64,000 nt of DNA from an uncultured Methylomirabilota bacterium (lineage in GTDB: Bacteria > Methylomirabilota > Methylomirabilia > Methylomirabilales > 2-02-FULL-66-22): positions 384,001-448,000 of the forward strand of contig CAWJSJ010000002.1 of NCBI GenBank assembly GCA_963845565.1, given 5' to 3'. The stretch's first letter is position 1, and each line of letters begins with the position of its first letter. Position numbers and translations under genes: made by a program. Below the pieces are notes generated by a model that worked only from the letters and a program-made list of their open reading frames with translations, was not told the DNA's origin and did no database searches. This document shows, piece by piece, positions 13,620-23,393 of the stretch.

Positions 13620-16600
13620 ATGACCGCGTCCACGGACCCCTCCCGTCAAACCAACCGACTGATCCACGAGACCAGTCCGTATCTTCTCCAGCACGCCCAC
13701 AACCCGGTGGACTGGTATCCCTGGGGTGCGGAGGCGCTGGCGCGAGCCAAGGCCGAGAACAGACCGATTTTGCTCAGCATCGGCTATTCGGCGTGCCATT
13801 GGTGCCACGTGATGGAGCGCGAATCATTCGAGGATGAGGCCGTCGCATCCCTCATGAACCGGCACTTCGTGAACATCAAGGTGGACCGCGAAGAGCGTCC
13901 CGACCTGGACGACATTTACATGGCCGCCACGCTGGCGCTGAACCACGGACAGGGCGGCTGGCCCATGACGGTGTTCCTCACCCCGGATCAGCGGCCGTTC
14001 TTCGCGGGGACCTACTTCCCCCCGCGGGACGGATTCGGGCGGCCCGGCTTCTCGACCCTCCTCACCCAGATCGCCGATCTGTGGGATCGGCGGCGGCCCG
14101 ACCTCGTCCTGCAGGCGGAGACGCTCACCGCGCACCTCCGCGAGCGGGCCGTGTCCGTCCCGGGTGGAAACGTCGGCGAGGCGGAGATACGTGCCGCCGT
14201 GCAGGAACTGGCCGCCGGGTTCGACCCGACCTACGGGGGATTCGGGCCCGCGCCCAAGTTCCCCCCGGCCGCGCAGATCTCGCTTCTCCTCCGACACCAC
14301 CGGCGGACCGGTGACGCTGCCGCCCTGGCCATGGCGACCAAGACCCTGGATGGCATGGCCCAGGGCGGGATGTATGACCAGATCGGCGGCGGCTTTGCCC
14401 GCTACTCCACGGATGAGCGGTGGCTGGTCCCCCACTTCGAGAAGATGCTGTACGACAACGCCCTGCTCGCGAAGACCTTCCTGGAGGGCTACCAGGTCAC
14501 GGGGGGCGCCTTCTATGCCCGGATCGCCCGCGAGATCCTGGAGTACATCCTGCGGGAGATGGTCGGCCCCGAGGGCGGGTTCTATTCGGCGACCGATGCC
14601 GACTCGGAGGGCGAGGAGGGCAAGTTCTTTGTCTGGACGCCGGCCGAGGTGGAGGCGGTCCTGGGCCCCGAAGAGGGCGGCCGGCTCTGCGCCTTTTTCG
14701 ACATCACCGACGAAGGCAACTGGGAGGGCAAGAGCATCCCGCATACGCCGCGCTCCGTGGAGCGTGTCGCCGCCCGTCTCGGGGTCGCCGTGGAGGCATT
14801 CCGAAAGAGCCTGGAGGACGGCCGGGCTCGGCTGTACGAGGCCCGCCGACAGCGGGTTCCGCCCGGGTTGGACGACAAGGTCCTCACGGCCTGGAACGGG
14901 ATGATGCTGGGGGCGATGGCGGAGGGCGCGCGGGTCCTCGGTGAGTCCCGCTATCTGGCGGCCGCCGCGCGCGCGGCGGATTTTCTGTTGGCCGTACTGC
15001 GGCGGCCCGACGGCCGGCTGCTCCGGACCTATCGCGCGGGGAAGGCCCACCTGGAAGCGTATCTCGAAGACTATGCCTTCCTGGCCGAAGGCCTTGTGGA
15101 CCTGTACGAGGCGGGCGGCGACAGTCGCTACCTCCGGGACGCCACGGGCCTTGCCGAGCGAATCCTGGCGGACTTCGGGGATCGGGCGGGCGGTTTCTTC
15201 GATACAGCGCAGGACCACGAGGCGCTCATCGTCCGGCACAAGGACGGCGCCGACGGCGCCGTCCCCAGCGCCAACGCCGTGGCCGCCTCGGTGCTCGCCC
15301 GGCTGTCCTGCCACCTGGACCGAGCCGACTTCCGGGAAGCCGCCGTCGGCGCCATCCAGGCCTACGGCCGGCCCATCGGCCAGCACCCGCGGGCCTTCTG
15401 CCGGAGTCTGGCGGTCGTGGACTTTCTCTTGGAGGGTCCGGTCGAGGTGGCCCTCGTCGGGGCGCCCGGTGCGGTGGGATTCGAGGCGCTCCGCGGCGCT
15501 CTCGCCCGACAGTTTCTTCCCAACCGGATCATCGCGCACCACGACCCTGCCGGTACGCCGACACCCGACTTGCCGCTGCTGCGCGGGAAGAGCCTCGTCG
15601 ATGGGAAGGCGGCGCTCTACATCTGCCGGAACTTCGCCTGCCAGACGCCGGTGACGGATCCCGCGAACCTGGCTCCGGCGCTGGATGCTCGGACGGGCGC
15701 GGCGCCCGACCAGGCGCGGGCCGGCATCGCGGCGCGGCTGGCGGGGCGGGCCACTGCCGAACGCACGGCGGCGCGCGCGGCTCGGTTCGTCGCCGCAGGT
15801 CTCGTGCAGGGCTACGGCCCCCTCGGGAGCACCGGCCTCGCCGTCAGCCGCCTCGGTTTCGGCTGCTACCGCGTGGACGACGAGACGCCCGACCATCGCG
15901 CCGCCTTGATCCAGGCCCTCCTCGATGGCTGCAACCTCATCGACACCTCGACGAACTATATGGACGGGGAGAGCGAGCGGCTGGTGGGCTCGGTCTTCGC
16001 CGAGCTCTCCCGCGACGGCCGCGTCGCCCGGGAGGAAGTGGTGGTCGTCTCCAAGATCGGCTACGTCCAGGGCCAGAACCTCGCCCTGGCCAAGGAGCGC
16101 GAGGCGGCAGGCACCCCGTTTCCGGAAATGGTCAAGTACCTGGACGGCTGCTGGCACTGCATCCATCCGGAGTTCTTGCAGGATCAACTCGCCCGCTCGC
16201 TGGAGCGCCTGCAACTCGACAGTCTGGATGTCTGCCTGCTCCATAATCCGGAGTATTTCTTTTCGGACGCGAAGCACCGGCGGACGGGGCGGACCGACGC
16301 GTTGCGCGACGAGTTCTACCGCCGTCTCCGCGATGCCTTTGCCTTCTTCGAAACCCAGGTGGCCGCGGGGCGGATCGGCTGGTACGGTGTCTCCTCCAAC
16401 ACGGCGGGGATCCGACCGGAGGATCCGGAAGCCACCTCGCTCTCACGGATGCTGGAGGCCGCCGTGGCGGCGGGCGGCCCGGATCACCATTTCCGGGTCG
16501 TGCAGGCGCCCTTGAACCTCTTCGAATCCGGCCCGGTCCGTCAGCCGAACACCGGCCCGGAGGCGAGCCGCACGCTCTCGGCGTTGGCGGCCGAGGTGGG

Positions 16601-17276
16601 GATCGCAGTGCTCACGAACCGCCCCCTCAACGCCTACGCCGGGCAGACGCTGATTCGCCTGGCCGACGTCCCGGAGATCGAAGAGATGGGAGCCGCAGCG
16701 CCTGACGAGGCGCTGGCGCAGGTGGCCGCCCTGGAGGAAGAGTTTCGCGCCACCATCGGTTCGCGCTTGCGCGTGCCCGACGGCGGGGCCTCGCCCAACG
16801 ATTGGTTCCGCTGGGCGGATCAGCTCCGCGCCATGACCGGGCAGCTCCAGGGGCTGGACCACTGGCAGCAGGTCGAAGAACACATGATCTCGCCGGCGGT
16901 CGGCCAGCTCGTCCAGATGCTGGACCAGTCCTTGAGCGGACCGATCCAGGAAACCTGGCGGTCCTGGCTGGAGCGGTACCTCCCGGCGCTCGACCTCCTG
17001 CTCCAGGCCTTCCGCGCCCGGGCGGCTCGGCAGAGCCAGGCGATGAGCAACCGCGTGACCGCCGGGCTGAACCCGCTCCTCCCGCTCGCTCGGCGGGGCG
17101 AGTCCTTGTCCCGGAAATCGCTCTGGGTCCTGGCCAGCACCCCGGGCGTGAGCACGGTCCTCCTGGGCATGCGGCATCCCGACTACGTGTCGGACGGCAT
17201 GGAGATCCTGAAGTGGGCGCCGCTGGGGGATTCCCGAAAGATCTATGACGCGATGGCTGAGGTCCGCGCGGGCTGA
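13620..17276 (+). CDS. YyaL/SPATA20 thioredoxin + six-hairpin domain protein fused to an aldo/keto reductase
   Basis: N-terminal [43 protein letters not shown]-terminal [23 protein letters not shown]. Confidence 0.9.
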
Positions 17277-17393
17277 GTCCGCCCGCAGGATGGGCGCGGG
17301 AGCCGTTCCCGCGTTCCATCGGGCGCCCGAGCCGTTCCGGGCGCCCTGAGCCTGACCGGCGCCGTCCGGTCATCACCAAGGAGGGGGAACAGC

Positions 17394-18236
17394 ATGGCAA
17401 AGAAGGCGTTGCTCGTTGGCATCAACCGGTACAGGATCCCCGGCGCTGATCTGCGCGGCTGCGTTAACGACGTGAAGAACCTGCGGACCGTTCTCACCAC
17501 ATACTGCGGCTTCGCCGGAAAGGACATCAAGACCCTCACGGATTACGCTGCCACCACCAAGGCGATGCGGGACGCCATCGCGGCACTGGTGAAGGGCGCC
17601 AAGAAGGGGGACGTCCTGCTCTTGCACTACTCCGGCCACGGCGCCAACGTCCCCGACAAGAACGGCGACGAGGCCGACCGGCGTGACGAGATCCTCTGCC
17701 CCACCGACCTCGACTGGAAGGACCCGCTTCTCGACGATTGGCTGCGCACAACGTTTGACCGGTTGCCGGCCGGCGTGAACTTCACGGTCATCATGGACTG
17801 TTGCCACTCGGGCACCAACACCCGTGCCATCCTGCCCCCGGACGCGCCGGTCATCCCCCGCTACCTGCCAAACCCGTGGGATTTGATGGCCACGGAATCC
17901 GGCCGGAATCTCAGGGGCAAGGTGAAGGGGAGTCTGCGCCGGTCCACGCCCGCGCGCCGGAAGAAGGACATCGTAGCCGTGAACATCCCGGAGGTGCTCG
18001 TCACGGGCTGCCGCGACACGCAGACCTCGGCCGACGCGGAGATCGGCGGCTCGTTCAACGGCGCCCTCACCTACAACCTGGTCGCCGCGATCAAGGCGGC
18101 CCGCGGCAAACTCACGTATCGCGAACTCCACGCCGGCACCGTGAAACGCCTCAAGAAGGGCGGGTTCTCGCAGGTCCCCCAGCTTGAAGGCCGCGCTCCG
18201 AATCTTGATCGTCCCTTCCTGTCGCCCCTGGCGTGA
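17394..18236 (+). CDS. Metacaspase/orthocaspase (peptidase C14)
   Basis: ALLVGINRY and LRGCVND; catalytic dyad YSGHG (His 17637) and DCCHSG; NGALTY and QVPQLEG. Confidence 0.93.
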   Translation: MAKKALLVGINRYRIPGADLRGCVNDVKNLRTVLTTYCGFAGKDIKTLTDYAATTKAMRDAIAALVKGAKKGDVLLLHYSGHGANVPDKNGDEADRRDEILCPTDLDWKDPLLDDWLRTTFDRLPAGVNFTVIMDCCHSGTNTRAILPPDAPVIPRYLPNPWDLMATESGRNLRGKVKGSLRRSTPARRKKDIVAVNIPEVLVTGCRDTQTSADAEIGGSFNGALTYNLVAAIKAARGKLTYRELHAGTVKRLKKGGFSQVPQLEGRAPNLDRPFLSPLA

Positions 18237-18344
18237 CGCGATCCGGCCCCCGGACGGCAGCCCGTCCGGGGGCGCCCCTGCAGGACGCCGCTCCTGGGCG
18301 TCGCATCCACGTGGCTCCGGCCACGTCTCCGCGGGAGGGCCGCC

Positions 18345-21300
18345 ATGCCGCGCATCAAGAAACCATGGACCTGTCTGTTCTACCTCTGTGGGGACAACTA
18401 CCTGGCGTCGTGCGTTGAGGACGACTTTCGGGAAATCTGTGCGGCGGGCGCCTCGCCGGACACGCATATCGCTCTCCAGCTCGACCGACCCACCGGGGCG
18501 GCCCGTTATCTGTTCCCCGAGCGGGGACAACGGCGGGCGCCGGCGCCCGACCGCACGCTGGGCAACGTCAACACCGGCGACCCGAACGCCGCCATCGACT
18601 TCCTTACCTGGGGGATGCGTGAGTGTCCGTCCACCCGCCTGGCGGTGATCCTGTCCGGTCCCGGCCTTCCCACCATGCCCGCGGAGGGCGGGGGCGCAGA
18701 CCCAACCCAGCAGGAGCTGTTCACCCTCTTCCCCGATGAGACCTCCAAGGACGCCCTGAACGCAGCCGAGCTGCGCCATCTCTTCCAGGAATCCCTTCGG
18801 CGCGCCCGGCGGAAGCGGGTGGACGTCGTCGGCCTGGATTCTTGCTCCCACGCCTTCTTGGAGGTGGCCTACCAGCTCGAAGGCCTGGCCGACGTCCTGG
18901 TGGCGTCGCAGACCTTCCTTCCCGGCGAGGGGTGGCCGTACCAGCGCCTCTTGAATGCCTGGCGGCGGCGGCATCCCACCGACGCCGAGAGCCTGGCGCG
19001 GCTCCTGGTCTCCGAAACGATCGCCGCCTACCGGCAGCAAAAGGCTCCGCCACGGATCGCCCTCTCGGCCATCAACCTGCGGGCACTGGACCAGGTGGCC
19101 CGCTCCCTGGATACCCTCACGCTGGGGATGATGCAGTGTCTGGGCGACAAGGCGGTCCTCGGCGCGCTGCAGGACACGCGCCGGCAGTCCCAGGGGATCG
19201 AGCAGCCCCACAACGTGGACCTGATCGAGATCCTCACGCTGGCCGAGCGGATGCTCCGCCGCCGGCACGCCAGGGCCTCCAACGCCTTCGGCGAGAAGGC
19301 ACGGGCGGCCGCCCTGGCGGACCTCATTACCCGGACGCTCGCGGTGATCCGGGGCGAGGGGGGCGGCCCGCCGCTCGTCCTGGCCAACGAATCGCTGACA
19401 GAACAGCCACTTCATGGGGTCTCGATCCATTTCGCCAAGAACCTGGCCGGGTCGAACTACCTCGACCTTCGGTTCGCGCGCAAGGTCCACTGGGCCGCGC
19501 TCCTCGGCGGGATGAATCTGATCGAGGATCACCCCCGGGCCCTGTGGCGGCTGGTGAGCGCCCTCATGGCGGACACCGGCGGCGCCACCCGACAGGAGTT
19601 GATCGGCCTGATGCTGGGGCCGGATTCCGTCATGGAGAGCCTGAAGACGCAGTTTCGTGCCCTGGAGTCCCCGCCCTGCTTCACCCTCTCCCTGGAGCGG
19701 CGCGACGATCTGGTCCAGGCCGAGGCCGCACCCGCACGCGTGGAGGCCCAACGCCTGTACCGGCTGCGCCTGGAAGGAACAGACGCCGGCGCGACCGTTG
19801 CCGAGAGCACCTGCCGCGTGAACCAGCGCACCTTTGACACGGTCCTCTCCCGGCTGGAACGCGTCCTGAACGACCCCACCGCCGACGCGGAGGCCCTCCC
19901 GCAGATCGTGTCCCTCGGACGAACCCTCTGGGAAGACCTCATGTCCGATGTGGGGGCGCGGCTCCATACCGCCGCGGCCCCGGTACCCTTGTGCGAGGCC
20001 GGGGAGTCCGACGAGGCGGCGGGAGATCACAGCGCGCCGCACCTTCGCCTCCAGATCGCGGCGGAACTGATGCGCCACCCGTGGGAGCTGTTGCATGACG
20101 GGGAGGAGCTGCTCGGGCTCCGCTACGCCCTGGGCCGCCAGGTGTTCATGAACGCACCGACCCTGCGGCAGGCGCGGCGTCGGACGGCGCCGGCGATTCG
20201 CGTCCTGGTCATCGGCGACCCCGCCTTTTCCCCCGCCTTCCTGGATGACCTCCGCCGCCAGAAGCGGCCGGTCCCCCCACAGCTCCCCGCGGCGCGCGCC
20301 GAGGCCCAGCGAGTCGTCCAAGAGTTCGAGCGACTGCGGGATGAATTGGCCGGCCTCCCGCCGCTGCAGGTCGAGGCGGTGGTGGGCGAAGCCCTCAGCG
20401 TGACCGAGATGCGCGAGCGGTTACGCGACGGCTATCACATCATCCACTTCGCCGGCCACGGCGTCTTCCGGAGGGGCGACCCCGAGACGAGCGCCTGGCT
20501 GCTCTCCGACGGGGAGCTCTGGGCGCGAGAGATCCGGAACACCTTGGCAGGACTGGAGGAGCCGCCCTGGCTCATCTTCGCCAACGCCTGCGAGGCCGGG
20601 ATGGACGCCGGGACGCCGGCCAGCCGCTACCAGGGGGACGTCTTCGGCCTGGCCACCGCCTGCATCAACCAGGGCGTGGCGGCGTATATCGCTCCACTCT
20701 GGCCGGTGCAGGATGTCTTGGCGGCCGACCTCGCCGCCGAGTTCTACCGGGAGCTGGTCTTGTATCGCACCAGCGTCGGGGAGGCGTTGCGCCGGGCGAA
20801 GGTCCGTGCTCGCGGGGGCAAGAGTGGCGGAGATGCTCGGCAGCTCACCTGGGCCAGTTTCGTCCTCTACGGGGATCCGACCCAGCAGCTGCTGCGAAGC
20901 CTGTGGTCGGGGTCCGCCCAGCCGGCCAAGCCGACACAGGCGGCGCCCGCCTCCCGGACCTCGGAAGAGCAGGTCCGGGCATTGGTGGCGGGCCCGGGGA
21001 TGCGGAGCCTGCGGACCGATGGGACGCGCGGTGCGCCCGGCCTCCCGGCGGGCGAGGTGGCTCTGCAGTTGGTCGAAAAGAACGGGGTGCGCTTCTGGCA
21101 GGCCCTCTCGGGCGACGAGGTGCGCCCGCTCGGGATCGGGGCCAAGCTATCCGACGGGGCAGCCGCAGGAGACCGCGGTCTCCTGGATGTCCTTCGCGTC
21201 GTGGGAACCTGGGCCGTGGGAACGGTCACCGGAAGAACGCAGAGCCTGATCACCGCCCTGGCCCGACAGTACGATCAGGACACCGTCCCCGAGCAGCGTC

Positions 21301-22256
21301 TCCTCCGGATCGGCTCCGACCGCAAGGGCGCGCCGCTCGGACCCCCGCCGTGGTCGTGGCTCCAGGGCGCCGCGCAGCCGGGCCAGACGGATCGAGTCCT
21401 GCTCTTCATCCACGGCACCTTCAGCCAGACCAGCGTCCCGGTGGCCGACTTCTCGCCGGGATTCCTGGCCTGGGCCGGCCGCACCTACCGCGCCGTCCTT
21501 GGTTTCGACCACTGGACGTTGTCGCTCGCCCCGGAGGACAACGCCACGCTCCTCTGGAACCTTCTCGATCCCGCCCTGCGCGCCGGGCATCGCCTGGACA
21601 TCATCACCCACAGCCGGGGCGGCCTGGTGGCCCGCGCCTTCGTGGAGCTGCTGGACCATGGCGAGGCGGTCCGCCGCGTGATCTTCGTCGGCACGCCCAA
21701 TGCGGGCACCAATCTGGCCAACCCGAAGAGCTGGGGCGCGGCGGCGGACATCCTCATCAATCTTGCCCCCATCAGCGCCCCGTTCGCCAAGCTGAGCGGC
21801 CTCTTGGCGCGGCTTCTCATCACCAAGGCCGAGGGCCGCATCCCCGGCCTCCAGGCGCAGAACCCCAGCGCCGTGGGGCCCGACGACTTCCTCGGTCGCA
21901 TCCAGGGGCCGACGACACTGCCCCAGGGAGTGAGCTACGGCGCCGTCGCCGCCAGCTTCGAGCCCGAGCCGGGCGGCTTCGACCCCAAGCATCTTCTGGC
22001 GCAGGCGGGCGACGCGGGCGCGGATGCGTTCTACGGGCACCCCAACGACCTGGTTGTGGACACGGGCAGCGTCTGGTCCGTGGACGCCGAGCCGGATTAC
22101 ACCCTGGACACCGCCAGCCGGGTGGTCCAGCGCGTCCTGCTCTTCAACCCCGAGGGCCGGGGGGTGGGCCAGGTGGTCCGGAAACGCGGCGTCCACCACA
22201 ACAATCTCTTCGCCATGCCCGAAACCATGGCCTTCCTGCAGGCCGAGCTGGCATGA
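18345..22256 (+). CDS. Clostripain-like (C11) + CHAT protease + alpha/beta-hydrolase fusion, 1303 aa
   Basis: C11: WTCLFYLCGDN, NTGDP, LDSC..LEVAY, GWPY. CHAT: PWELL, HFAGHG, NACEAG, WASFVLYGDP. Hydrolase: FIHGTFS, THSRGG, GTPNAGT, NDLVV, terminal His. Confidence 0.88.
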   Translation: MPRIKKPWTCLFYLCGDNYLASCVEDDFREICAAGASPDTHIALQLDRPTGAARYLFPERGQRRAPAPDRTLGNVNTGDPNAAIDFLTWGMRECPSTRLAVILSGPGLPTMPAEGGGADPTQQELFTLFPDETSKDALNAAELRHLFQESLRRARRKRVDVVGLDSCSHAFLEVAYQLEGLADVLVASQTFLPGEGWPYQRLLNAWRRRHPTDAESLARLLVSETIAAYRQQKAPPRIALSAINLRALDQVARSLDTLTLGMMQCLGDKAVLGALQDTRRQSQGIEQPHNVDLIEILTLAERMLRRRHARASNAFGEKARAAALADLITRTLAVIRGEGGGPPLVLANESLTEQPLHGVSIHFAKNLAGSNYLDLRFARKVHWAALLGGMNLIEDHPRALWRLVSALMADTGGATRQELIGLMLGPDSVMESLKTQFRALESPPCFTLSLERRDDLVQAEAAPARVEAQRLYRLRLEGTDAGATVAESTCRVNQRTFDTVLSRLERVLNDPTADAEALPQIVSLGRTLWEDLMSDVGARLHTAAAPVPLCEAGESDEAAGDHSAPHLRLQIAAELMRHPWELLHDGEELLGLRYALGRQVFMNAPTLRQARRRTAPAIRVLVIGDPAFSPAFLDDLRRQKRPVPPQLPAARAEAQRVVQEFERLRDELAGLPPLQVEAVVGEALSVTEMRERLRDGYHIIHFAGHGVFRRGDPETSAWLLSDGELWAREIRNTLAGLEEPPWLIFANACEAGMDAGTPASRYQGDVFGLATACINQGVAAYIAPLWPVQDVLAADLAAEFYRELVLYRTSVGEALRRAKVRARGGKSGGDARQLTWASFVLYGDPTQQLLRSLWSGSAQPAKPTQAAPASRTSEEQVRALVAGPGMRSLRTDGTRGAPGLPAGEVALQLVEKNGVRFWQALSGDEVRPLGIGAKLSDGAAAGDRGLLDVLRVVGTWAVGTVTGRTQSLITALARQYDQDTVPEQRLLRIGSDRKGAPLGPPPWSWLQGAAQPGQTDRVLLFIHGTFSQTSVPVADFSPGFLAWAGRTYRAVLGFDHWTLSLAPEDNATLLWNLLDPALRAGHRLDIITHSRGGLVARAFVELLDHGEAVRRVIFVGTPNAGTNLANPKSWGAAADILINLAPISAPFAKLSGLLARLLITKAEGRIPGLQAQNPSAVGPDDFLGRIQGPTTLPQGVSYGAVAASFEPEPGGFDPKHLLAQAGDAGADAFYGHPNDLVVDTGSVWSVDAEPDYTLDTASRVVQRVLLFNPEGRGVGQVVRKRGVHHNNLFAMPETMAFLQAELA

Positions 22257-22265
22257 GGCCTCGAA

Positions 22266-23393
22266 TCAGGTGCGCGTCGGCGTGATCCCCGTGACCTTCC
22301 CGGTCACCTCGTACCGGGCGAGCGCCGGCGGGTCGAAGACAATCCCATGGCCCGGGCGGGCGGGAGGCCCGATCTCGCCCTTGACGACCCGGATCGGCTC
22401 GGCCAGGACGCCGAGGTCGGTGAGCGACCCGCCCTGAAGATCCTCCAGGATCAACCCGTTCGGGACGGCGCAGAGCGCGTGGACCGAGAGCTCCATCATG
22501 AAGTGGGGCGCCACCGGCAGGTTGAAGCTCTCCGCCAGCTTCGCGATCTTGAGCCATTCCGTGAACCCGCCCACCCGCGGGACGTCCGCCTGGACCACGT
22601 CCACCGCCCCCGCCCGGATGTAATCGGCGAACTCGTACCGGGTGTAGAGCGTCTCGCCCACGGCGACCGGCACGCCCGCTTCCTGTCGGACGTGCGCGTG
22701 GCCGGCTCGATCGTCGGCGAGCAGCGGCTCCTCGATCCAGCAGGGATCGAAGGGTTTCAGCAGGCCCACCCGCCGGACCGCGTCGGCCGCCGTCCACTTC
22801 TGGTTGGCGTCCAGCATCAGCCGGACACCGGGCCCGATCAGTCGGCGCACCGCGGCGACCCGCGCCACGTCCTCGTGCGGATCGTCCCGACCCACCTTCA
22901 TCTTCACGGCGCGGTAGCCCTGCGCCAGGAACCCTCGCATCTGGTCGAGCAACGGCTCGCCGTCGAGGTGGGCGTTGATGCCGCTCCCGTAGGCGGGGAT
23001 GCGATCCCGGAACCCGCCGAGCAGCCGGGACAATGGCACCCCGGCCTTCTGGGCGAGGATGTCCCAGAGGGCGATGTCGATCGTCGCCAGGGCGAAGCGC
23101 GTCATGCCGCCCGAGCCGAGCGCGTGCAGCTCCCACCAGCAGCGCGTCCAGATCCGCTCCAAGTCCACGGGGTCGGCCCCGAGGACGAGCGGGGCGAGAT
23201 AGGTGCCGACGAGTTCCCGGACGGCCGTCCCGCCGATGCCGAGCGTGTATGCAAAACCTGTCCCCGTGATCCCGGCGTCGGTGGTGACGGTGGTCACGAC
23301 GAATTCCCAGTGCGAGATGCGCTGGATCGAATCCTGGATCTGCACGGTCGGCGGGATGCGGTAGAGTCGAGCCTCGATCCCCGTGATACGCAT
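22266..23393 (-). CDS. Mandelate racemase/muconate lactonizing enzyme family protein
   Basis: DIALWDI, KMKVG, LMLDANQ, WIEEPL and AVGETLY motifs. Confidence 0.92.
   Translation of the reverse strand: MRITGIEARLYRIPPTVQIQDSIQRISHWEFVVTTVTTDAGITGTGFAYTLGIGGTAVRELVGTYLAPLVLGADPVDLERIWTRCWWELHALGSGGMTRFALATIDIALWDILAQKAGVPLSRLLGGFRDRIPAYGSGINAHLDGEPLLDQMRGFLAQGYRAVKMKVGRDDPHEDVARVAAVRRLIGPGVRLMLDANQKWTAADAVRRVGLLKPFDPCWIEEPLLADDRAGHAHVRQEAGVPVAVGETLYTRYEFADYIRAGAVDVVQADVPRVGGFTEWLKIAKLAESFNLPVAPHFMMELSVHALCAVPNGLILEDLQGGSLTDLGVLAEPIRVVKGEIGPPARPGHGIVFDPPALARYEVTGKVTGITPTRT

Follow-up and report, generated by a model that had tools for sequence, protein, structure and literature searches.

A clostripain-like, CHAT and lipase-fold hydrolase fusion beside a metacaspase-type gene: a candidate protease-gated effector in a Methylomirabilota genome

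Research on bacterial immunity is now actively exploring protease-gated effectors. According to the accessible part of Evans et al. (bioRxiv 10.1101/2025.11.14.688446), a caspase (LcCaspase) cuts LcHydrolase at two R↓G sites 44 amino acids (aa) apart and thereby activates it, and the substrate of LcHydrolase is unknown; a caspase plus alpha/beta-hydrolase module is also predicted in the accessible part of Kaur et al. (PMC7159879). In the available text of Steens et al. (bioRxiv 10.1101/2023.06.23.546230), a CHAT protease cleaves and activates a C14 caspase, which kills by broad proteolysis. The accessible part of Johnson et al. (bioRxiv 10.1101/2021.06.07.447441) names C14 and CHAT as the commonest gasdermin-linked proteases, and in its main text the words clostripain, hydrolase and lipase have no occurrence. 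Here we describe a locus at positions 17394..22256 of a 64,000-nucleotide stretch of DNA (the window) from an uncultured Methylomirabilota bacterium (GenBank GCA_963845565.1, contig CAWJSJ010000002.1, positions 384,001 to 448,000 of the forward strand), where a metacaspase-type gene is followed by one that fuses a clostripain (C11)-like domain, a CHAT protease and an alpha/beta hydrolase.

Both genes lie on the + strand, 108 bp apart, and each is single-copy in its own genome. The first (17394..18236) encodes a stand-alone C14 metacaspase-type protease of 280 aa (Pfam Peptidase_C14, 3e-31). The second (18345..22256) encodes 1303 aa comprising, in order, a probable pseudo-clostripain, a separase/Csx29-type CHAT protease, a pro-region with two Arg-Gly motifs and a DUF7379 alpha/beta hydrolase. 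Pfam places Peptidase_C11 at aa 13-268 (3e-23), CHAT at aa 524-844 (3e-39) and DUF7379 at aa 1019-1174 (3e-35); PGAP1 and thioesterase matches are weak and under cut-off. An earlier reading of the letters alone (the sequence-only reading) had given this spacing, the C14, C11-like, CHAT and alpha/beta-hydrolase assignments, the CHAT dyad and candidate hydrolase residues, and open reading frames, Pfam and coordinates agree with it. It had also seen no evident signal peptide in either protein, and a Kyte-Doolittle scan, as opposed to a signal-peptide predictor, likewise finds no hydrophobic N-terminus (best 19-residue mean in the first 40 aa, 0.45 and 0.54). The C11-CHAT-DUF7379 architecture belongs to a conserved family: a whole-length search gave 120 homologues among the matches listed, most with the same three Pfam domains. 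The explanation we favour, at about even chances of being right, is that the fusion is a self-contained protease-gated death effector in which CHAT frees the hydrolase, the C11 domain regulates, and the caspase is an optional amplifier or second output.

We regard CHAT, a predicted active protease, as the constant core of the fusion family because its dyad residues, His705 (20457) and Cys749 (20589), are each present in 121/121 sequences, while the C11 domain has its catalytic His in only 1 of the 107 filled rows of that 121-sequence set. An AlphaFold2 model of aa 360-1303, built with 70 sequences, has a mean predicted local distance difference test score of 83 and a predicted template modelling score of 0.55, and Foldseek matches it to Csx29 and separase. 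In this model the protease module at aa 441-856 (19665..20912, + strand), an N-terminal subdomain plus the predicted active CHAT, aligns with separase 5FC2 at a VIA-align Z of 24.4 (root-mean-square deviation 4.2 over 314 aa) and with Csx29 7Y9X at Z 22.9; the CHAT fold reaches Z 18.7 with 8TL0. Asp790, also found in 121/121 sequences, is a candidate partner for a P1 Arg and may be the equivalent of separase Asp2151. Separase, in the accessible part of its published description, requires a P1 Arg, which is bound by a conserved Asp.

The C11-like domain with its C-terminal helical part spans aa 1-392 (18345..19520, + strand) and stands well above the Pfam cut-off (83 bits versus 25.8), with C11 entries matched in the PDB too. 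Aligned with the solved C11 structure 6N9J and with four C11 proteins of related genomes whose dyad is intact, the domain has Pro106 (18660) at the catalytic His position. Because this His is gone, the domain is probably a pseudo-protease, and of the three clan CD protease folds that the sequence-only reading had named, only two look active; an arrangement of three active proteases is rejected in view of Pro106 and the near absence of His from the family. The single row with His has no Cys, and the Cys column holds Cys in 59/111 rows, including Cys167 of the window protein. Asp165, two residues ahead of the Cys, is present in 101/110 homologues and corresponds to Asp177 of PmC11, the clostripain-family S1 residue in the accessible part of PMC4850288; Asp17 is present in 105/106. 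The Arg-rich self-processing loop between His and Cys is shorter in the fusion and lacks the Arg of the four dyad-intact relatives. The simplest view of a dead enzyme that retains its substrate pocket across the family is that it serves in binding or regulation. Inactive peptidases are proposed as decoys or peptide binders in other conflict systems by Kaur et al. 2020, in the accessible part of which clostripain has no occurrence.

Directly upstream of a CHAT gene in three related genomes (L177, L178 and L179; such labels are our own) lies a dyad-intact C11 gene, plausibly the unfused ancestor of the fusion. By alignment to the published clostripain description, Arg-Gly also marks the position of the self-processing loop in dyad-intact C11 neighbours. 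Dyad-intact clostripain-like genes without evident signal peptide are located at L177:10405-11694, L178:5329-6603, L179:6473-7759 and L180:1380-2546, three of the four directly before CHAT genes. One family member (L039:4276-10371) has a WD40-like beta-propeller inserted within its C11 domain.

The DUF7379 hydrolase occupies aa 981-1303 (21285..22253, + strand), as judged by conservation, fold and profile matches. VIA-align of the modelled domain gives Z 19.9 with BlEst2, 19.5 with the Streptomyces lipase 5H6B and 18.5 with the phospholipase PlaB, the profile match is to the putative lipase 7X2P (8e-10), and its neighbours in the Atlas are DUF7379 clusters. The lipase assignment of the sequence-only reading is supported at the level of fold. 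The triad consists of Ser1090 (21612), Asp1235 (22047) and probably His1285 (22197), with His1284 at 22194. Ser1090 is kept in 99/112 homologues and Asp1235 in 107/110; among the 97 Ser-intact rows that reach the His position, all keep His1285 and 95 keep His1284.

Ahead of the hydrolase are two Arg-Gly motifs, our predicted cut sites: Arg895-Gly896 (21027..21032, + strand) and Arg944-Gly945 (21174..21179, + strand). They lie 49 aa apart in low-confidence loops of the AlphaFold2 model, and their Arg residues precede the oxyanion motif by 127 and 78 aa. The first, counted within 30 residues, is found in 91/110 homologues (about 18% expected from composition) and sits in a poorly conserved linker, and the second is found in 104/110 (about 10% expected); P0105, which has a DUF900 hydrolase, was omitted from these counts. 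Both motifs are present in 83/98 Ser-intact versus 2/12 Ser-lost homologues, and six other linker residues are kept alike in the two groups (5.86 and 5.92 of 6). An Arg-Gly also lies 72-104 aa ahead of the oxyanion motif in 12/12 DUF7379 domains of another architecture, and one precedes the swapped-in DUF900 hydrolase in two of three cases (L057 and P0129, not P0105). The two motifs sit where a releasing cut would be needed, and cuts at both would give pieces of 98, 4.9 and 38 kDa, the last being aa 945-1303 (38.3 kDa). We read the hydrolase as a zymogen because the pair is 49 aa apart in flexible loops and LcHydrolase is activated by R↓G cuts at a similar spacing of 44 aa.

The protein encoded by the first gene shows the features of a metacaspase (C14B), i.e., C14 family membership, a His-Cys dyad (His82 at 17637, Cys137 at 17802) and an acidic S1 pocket for basic residues. 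The pocket residues Cys23, Asp26, Ser80 and Asp135 share the spacing of Cys92/Asp95/Ser156/Asp211, the S1 residues of TbMCA2 in the accessible part of its published description. The closest solved relatives in the PDB are eukaryotic (plant and fungal) metacaspases, with AtMC4 at 4e-44 by profile. Three of the four TbMCA2 calcium ligands map by spacing to Asp98, Asp114 and Asp115, and at the position of the fourth stands Arg144 (17823..17825, + strand; catalytic Cys+7), which is present in 75/75 aligned caspases and may be an activating cut site or a calcium-replacing residue. PCaspase presumably has a cut site at Cys+7 as well; the preprint of Steens et al. has no occurrence of it, and it is not used here as evidence.

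Judged by record titles, the fusion loci belong to Planctomycetota, Verrucomicrobiota, Chloroflexota, Acidobacteriota and Myxococcota, and a same-order genome has a protein 45-50% identical to the fusion that one source labels Candidatus Methylomirabilis. Of 20 genomes of the genus that were searched, 2 have an orthologue: one stops at 886 aa and has no hydrolase, and the other is fragmented. Shorter and longer forms were searched for, and only hydrolase-less variants and three with a DUF900 hydrolase in the same slot were seen. At L096, a caspase 89% identical to ours sits at the same chromosomal site and the fusion gene is gone.

The caspase is dispensable. It adjoins the fusion in 8/30 informative loci, our own included (full-length loci with at least 1.2 kb of upstream sequence, L003 being dropped as a duplicate of L016), and lies elsewhere in 2 more; adjacency needs 8 changes on the tree when rows with short upstream sequence are scored as lacking a caspase. 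Among the 21 genomes with no adjacent caspase, one has a close caspase elsewhere, and in 10 the profile finds no C14 match at 1e-10. In most carriers, CHAT is therefore the only linked active protease. The sequence-only reading had proposed a two-gene cascade, and the co-occurrence stands, extending across several phyla, but these counts rule out an obligate two-gene system.

A caspase is found in the locus in 11/13 cases with a dead or absent hydrolase versus 6/24 with an intact one. (This 37-locus count excludes the frameshifted L059, L068, L071 and L073, the truncated L029 and the Myxococcota rows.) Caspases lie beside hydrolase-less fusion genes in 9 loci. A caspase that is commoner where the hydrolase is dead would be expected if both were alternative outputs of a C11-CHAT unit. 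Viewed from the caspase clade, the next gene is of the CHAT/hydrolase family in 36/55 informative metagenome loci (80 minus 25 with less than 600 bp downstream), 5 of them fusion-family members and 31 other architectures (e.g., DUF7379-LCAT-CHAT-TPR-S). Two neighbouring arrangements are recorded here in their own right. L056:12755-14734 encodes a C14 caspase with a C-terminal hydrolase, LcHydrolase-like by eye, directly after a fusion gene without the hydrolase Ser, and L051:3346-7541 holds an 800-aa caspase and a PLD-domain gene, divergent from a fusion gene with a Ser-less hydrolase.

Under the explanation we favour, the trigger, the cuts, the order of the proteases and the lipid target would be as follows. 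The His-less C11 domain would hold or trip CHAT as a regulator or sensor, its dead pocket binding an Arg-bearing peptide that might be its own linker, a cleavage product or an invader protein. CHAT, preferring Arg, would cut the fusion at Arg895-Gly and Arg944-Gly and so free the 38-kDa lipase-fold hydrolase from its zymogen. The freed hydrolase would attack an ester substrate, probably a membrane lipid, and the infected cell would be killed or stalled. Where present, the metacaspase would be switched on by CHAT near Arg144, like PCaspase by SAVED-CHAT, and would then amplify the response or add a second lethal output.

Several results weigh against this scheme. With regard to the Arg preference of CHAT, Asp790 aligns with a Ser in Csx29. 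The hydrolase Ser is lost in 13/112 homologues, and neither its co-variation with the Arg-Gly motifs (4 independent pairs) nor the trend linking caspase presence to hydrolase loss (5 independent pairs) is significant after phylogenetic correction (median p 0.25), the pairs being never opposite. Most of the 21 genomes in which no caspase adjoins the fusion are drafts whose completeness is not stated. The R-G sites of LcHydrolase lie, by eye, after the oxyanion motif and inside the fold, whereas those of the fusion lie ahead of it; since one protein has its sites inside the fold and the other before DUF7379, we see the same logic in a different hydrolase family. As to defence, the locus lies between a DUF255-aldo/keto reductase fusion and an enolase-family gene (Pfam), the G+C content of the locus resembles its host's, and the genes flanking full-length relatives (125 genes, 27 loci) are nearly all housekeeping, there being no control set. 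A gasdermin search of the own genome gave 0 matches, yet its positive control gave none either.

Most full-length loci lack the caspase but keep both Arg-Gly motifs and the hydrolase Ser, nearly half of the genomes without an adjacent caspase (10/21) have no C14 match at 1e-10, and caspases are retained beside hydrolase-less genes. These observations count against a cascade with the metacaspase as initiator, which would cut the fusion in trans at its Arg-Gly motifs to free the hydrolase, with CHAT as a relay or directed at another target. We think such a cascade unlikely, even though the metacaspase has a basic-residue S1 pocket and a C14 caspase is what cuts LcHydrolase at R↓G in the accessible part of Evans et al. 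The caspase clade is also usually directly upstream of CHAT/hydrolase genes, and the dyad-intact C11 genes of L177, L178 and L179 occupy the same slot, as though an Arg-specific protease normally stood upstream.

The neighbourhoods of relatives bear on what such a unit is for. Gasdermin genes lie beside the hydrolase-less relatives L067 and L073 (PADLOC 7e-63 and 2e-67) and beside the caspase clade in L145, and TIR, TPR-S, patatin or gasdermin genes occur in 22/80 caspase loci, as counted from cluster-representative labels on contigs that are partly related. Scattered defence-like exceptions among the 125 flanking genes are a HigB pair, a Uma2 nuclease, a HerA-like gene and a PLD gene. No defence-island context was found for full-length loci in the 125 of 168 planned flanking genes and 9 more that were scanned, again with no control set. 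No gasdermin gene lies beside our own locus, between its DUF255-aldo/keto reductase and enolase-family flanks, and the locus has no SAVED domain, inhibitor, sigma factor, kinase, CRISPR or CBASS genes. Because of the gasdermin, TIR, TPR-S and patatin neighbours of relatives, the patchiness, the loss and the effector swapping, we consider defence or programmed death the probable function.

A different role would be a proteolytic switch for stress or development (e.g., one that senses calcium or damage), remodelling lipids or clearing proteins in slow-growing sediment bacteria and not directed at phages. The housekeeping flanks of the locus and of its full-length relatives, the single copy of both genes per genome and the eukaryotic metacaspases as nearest solved caspase relatives would suit it, as would a fusion tree that follows host phyla in part (there are Chloroflexota and Myxococcota clades). 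Contigs of close relatives in sediment RNA libraries also span both genes; such contigs do not show level, strand or true transcription, and they may stem from DNA carry-over. Such a switch sits poorly with a family that is patchy within a genus, has lost the fusion at the same site in L096, loses and swaps its effector, and has relatives beside gasdermin, TIR, TPR-S and patatin genes, and we judge it improbable. Least plausible of all is a multi-enzyme scaffold in which the Arg-Gly motifs are structural or binding elements, the hydrolase works attached and CHAT cuts outside substrates: in the model a conserved strand, part of a small beta subdomain, comes after the second motif, which 8/12 Ser-lost homologues keep, but both motifs fall in low-confidence loops, the first persists despite its poorly conserved linker, cutting at R-G has been proven for another pair of caspase and hydrolase (accessible part of Evans et al.), and Arg-Gly marks the self-processing-loop position in dyad-intact C11 neighbours.

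Our favoured explanation of a self-contained effector can be extended, though doubtfully, to a new class of immune receptor in bacteria: a dead clostripain, acting as decoy or Arg-peptide sensor, would switch on a fused separase-like protease with interchangeable outputs (lipase zymogen, metacaspase and, elsewhere, gasdermin). If true, bacteria would have, in one polypeptide, an equivalent of the caspase cascades that pseudo-proteases regulate, and it would have arisen through fusion of an active clostripain gene with the CHAT gene next to it, followed by loss of catalysis.

Other protease clusters were seen among the relatives. In Vicinamibacterales (L073:1-11260, L068, L070) divergent clusters carry on one strand a caspase, a gasdermin (L073 only), an unknown 346-aa gene and a DUF7379-CHAT-TPR-S gene, and on the other a second caspase and a pseudo-C11-CHAT gene. 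At L067:5005-10946, one strand encodes a gasdermin, then a 670-aa protein (N-terminus hydrolase-like by eye, C-terminal C14) and then a pseudo-C11-CHAT protein. An unannotated family of 286-352 aa recurs in protease clusters (L063:4531-5391, L065:21-878, L068:5115-6170, L073:4357-5394) with no Pfam or PADLOC match. Directly after CHAT-TPR-S genes (L143:11937-12713, L155, L160, L163, L174) comes an unannotated, helical-looking protein of 258 aa with an N-terminal Arg-Gly, a candidate for a further protease-activated effector. Two unannotated genes (about 280-295 and 95 aa), also without Pfam or PADLOC match, lie directly before the caspase in L151:3505-4737, L158, L159, L164 and L174. A RelA/SpoT-domain gene (L004:550-1269; PADLOC PDC-S33, 6e-30) lies just 3' of the orthologous locus in G042.

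Within the window, a 12-bp GC-rich hairpin (18246..18273, + strand) lies directly 3' of the caspase stop codon, in a 111-nt spacer with a fold z of -2.4. It is also found in the close relatives L002, L003/L146 and L097, is missing in L098 and L018, and might stabilise the mRNA or act in attenuation. Neither a sigma-70 promoter consensus nor a terminator consensus was found in 17100-22500. Upstream of the caspase, at 13620-17276, is a 1218-aa fusion of DUF255/thioredoxin and aldo/keto reductase, which also neighbours the caspase in same-genus loci.

The sequence-only reading did not recognise the architecture as a named system, and we came to the same view. PADLOC matches the caspase as a component only and has no match for the fusion protein, NCBIfam matches of the locus proteins are all under cut-off, and a literature search that covered few subscription journals gave no paper with DUF7379 and none on the C11-CHAT-DUF7379 architecture. 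Neither clostripain nor CHAT was found in the accessible parts of the two supplements of Evans et al., and the accessible part of Kaur et al. 2021 contains no clostripain. The parts and the protease-gating logic are already known, but there seems to be no earlier description of the pseudo-clostripain-CHAT unit or of the DUF7379 pro-region. For DUF7379 the family offers a specific hypothesis of activation, complete with predicted cut sites, and it adds a candidate regulatory module: a clostripain catalytically crippled across the family but with its substrate pocket retained. One bacterial metacaspase clade, near the plant and fungal enzymes, is also linked through this family to CHAT in Planctomycetota, Verrucomicrobiota, Acidobacteriota and the host's order.

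Of the described systems, LcCaspase-LcHydrolase shares with our locus a C14 caspase beside a lipase-like alpha/beta hydrolase, two R-G sites about 45-50 aa apart and a zymogen logic. Here, however, the hydrolase is DUF7379 and fused behind a pseudo-C11 and CHAT, the caspase is stand-alone and optional, and there is no STAND, WD40 or VMAP sensor. The fusion hydrolase scores 25 bits around the nucleophile against the C-terminus of L056 12755-14734, an LcHydrolase look-alike picked by eye and not LcHydrolase itself. The SAVED-CHAT/PCaspase pair of the Haliangium type III-B CRISPR system likewise co-encodes CHAT with a C14 caspase and provides the 8TL0 fold match, but the fusion has no SAVED (Pfam) and carries a pseudo-clostripain at the N-terminal place of the sensor, with a hydrolase joined on after CHAT. 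Bacterial gasdermin operons use the same C14 and CHAT classes, and gasdermins do lie beside hydrolase-less relatives or the caspase clade (L067, L073, L145), whereas our own locus has none.

Csx29/TPR-CHAT (Craspase) and separase share the two-subdomain protease module, on which aa 441-856 of the model superimpose. Unlike Craspase, the fusion has no TPR solenoid (Pfam) and no Cas7-11 partner, its N-terminus is C11-like, and its CHAT probably has its substrate in the same chain. With clostripain (PmC11, accessible part of PMC4850288) it shares the Pfam C11 domain, the S1 Asp two residues before the Cys and the helical C-terminal domain, but the family has lost the His, has lost the Cys in about half of its members and has a shortened self-processing loop, and the fusion has no evident signal peptide and is joined to CHAT. 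Finally, the DUF7379-LCAT-CHAT-TPR-S genes (L110:6983-12472, L152:3760-9537, L177:5001-10241 and others) form a sister system with two hydrolases. They too combine Arg-Gly-DUF7379 with CHAT and follow directly on a member of the same caspase clade or on an intact C11, but their domain order is the opposite one, and they have a second, LCAT-type hydrolase, a TPR-S tail and no pseudo-C11.

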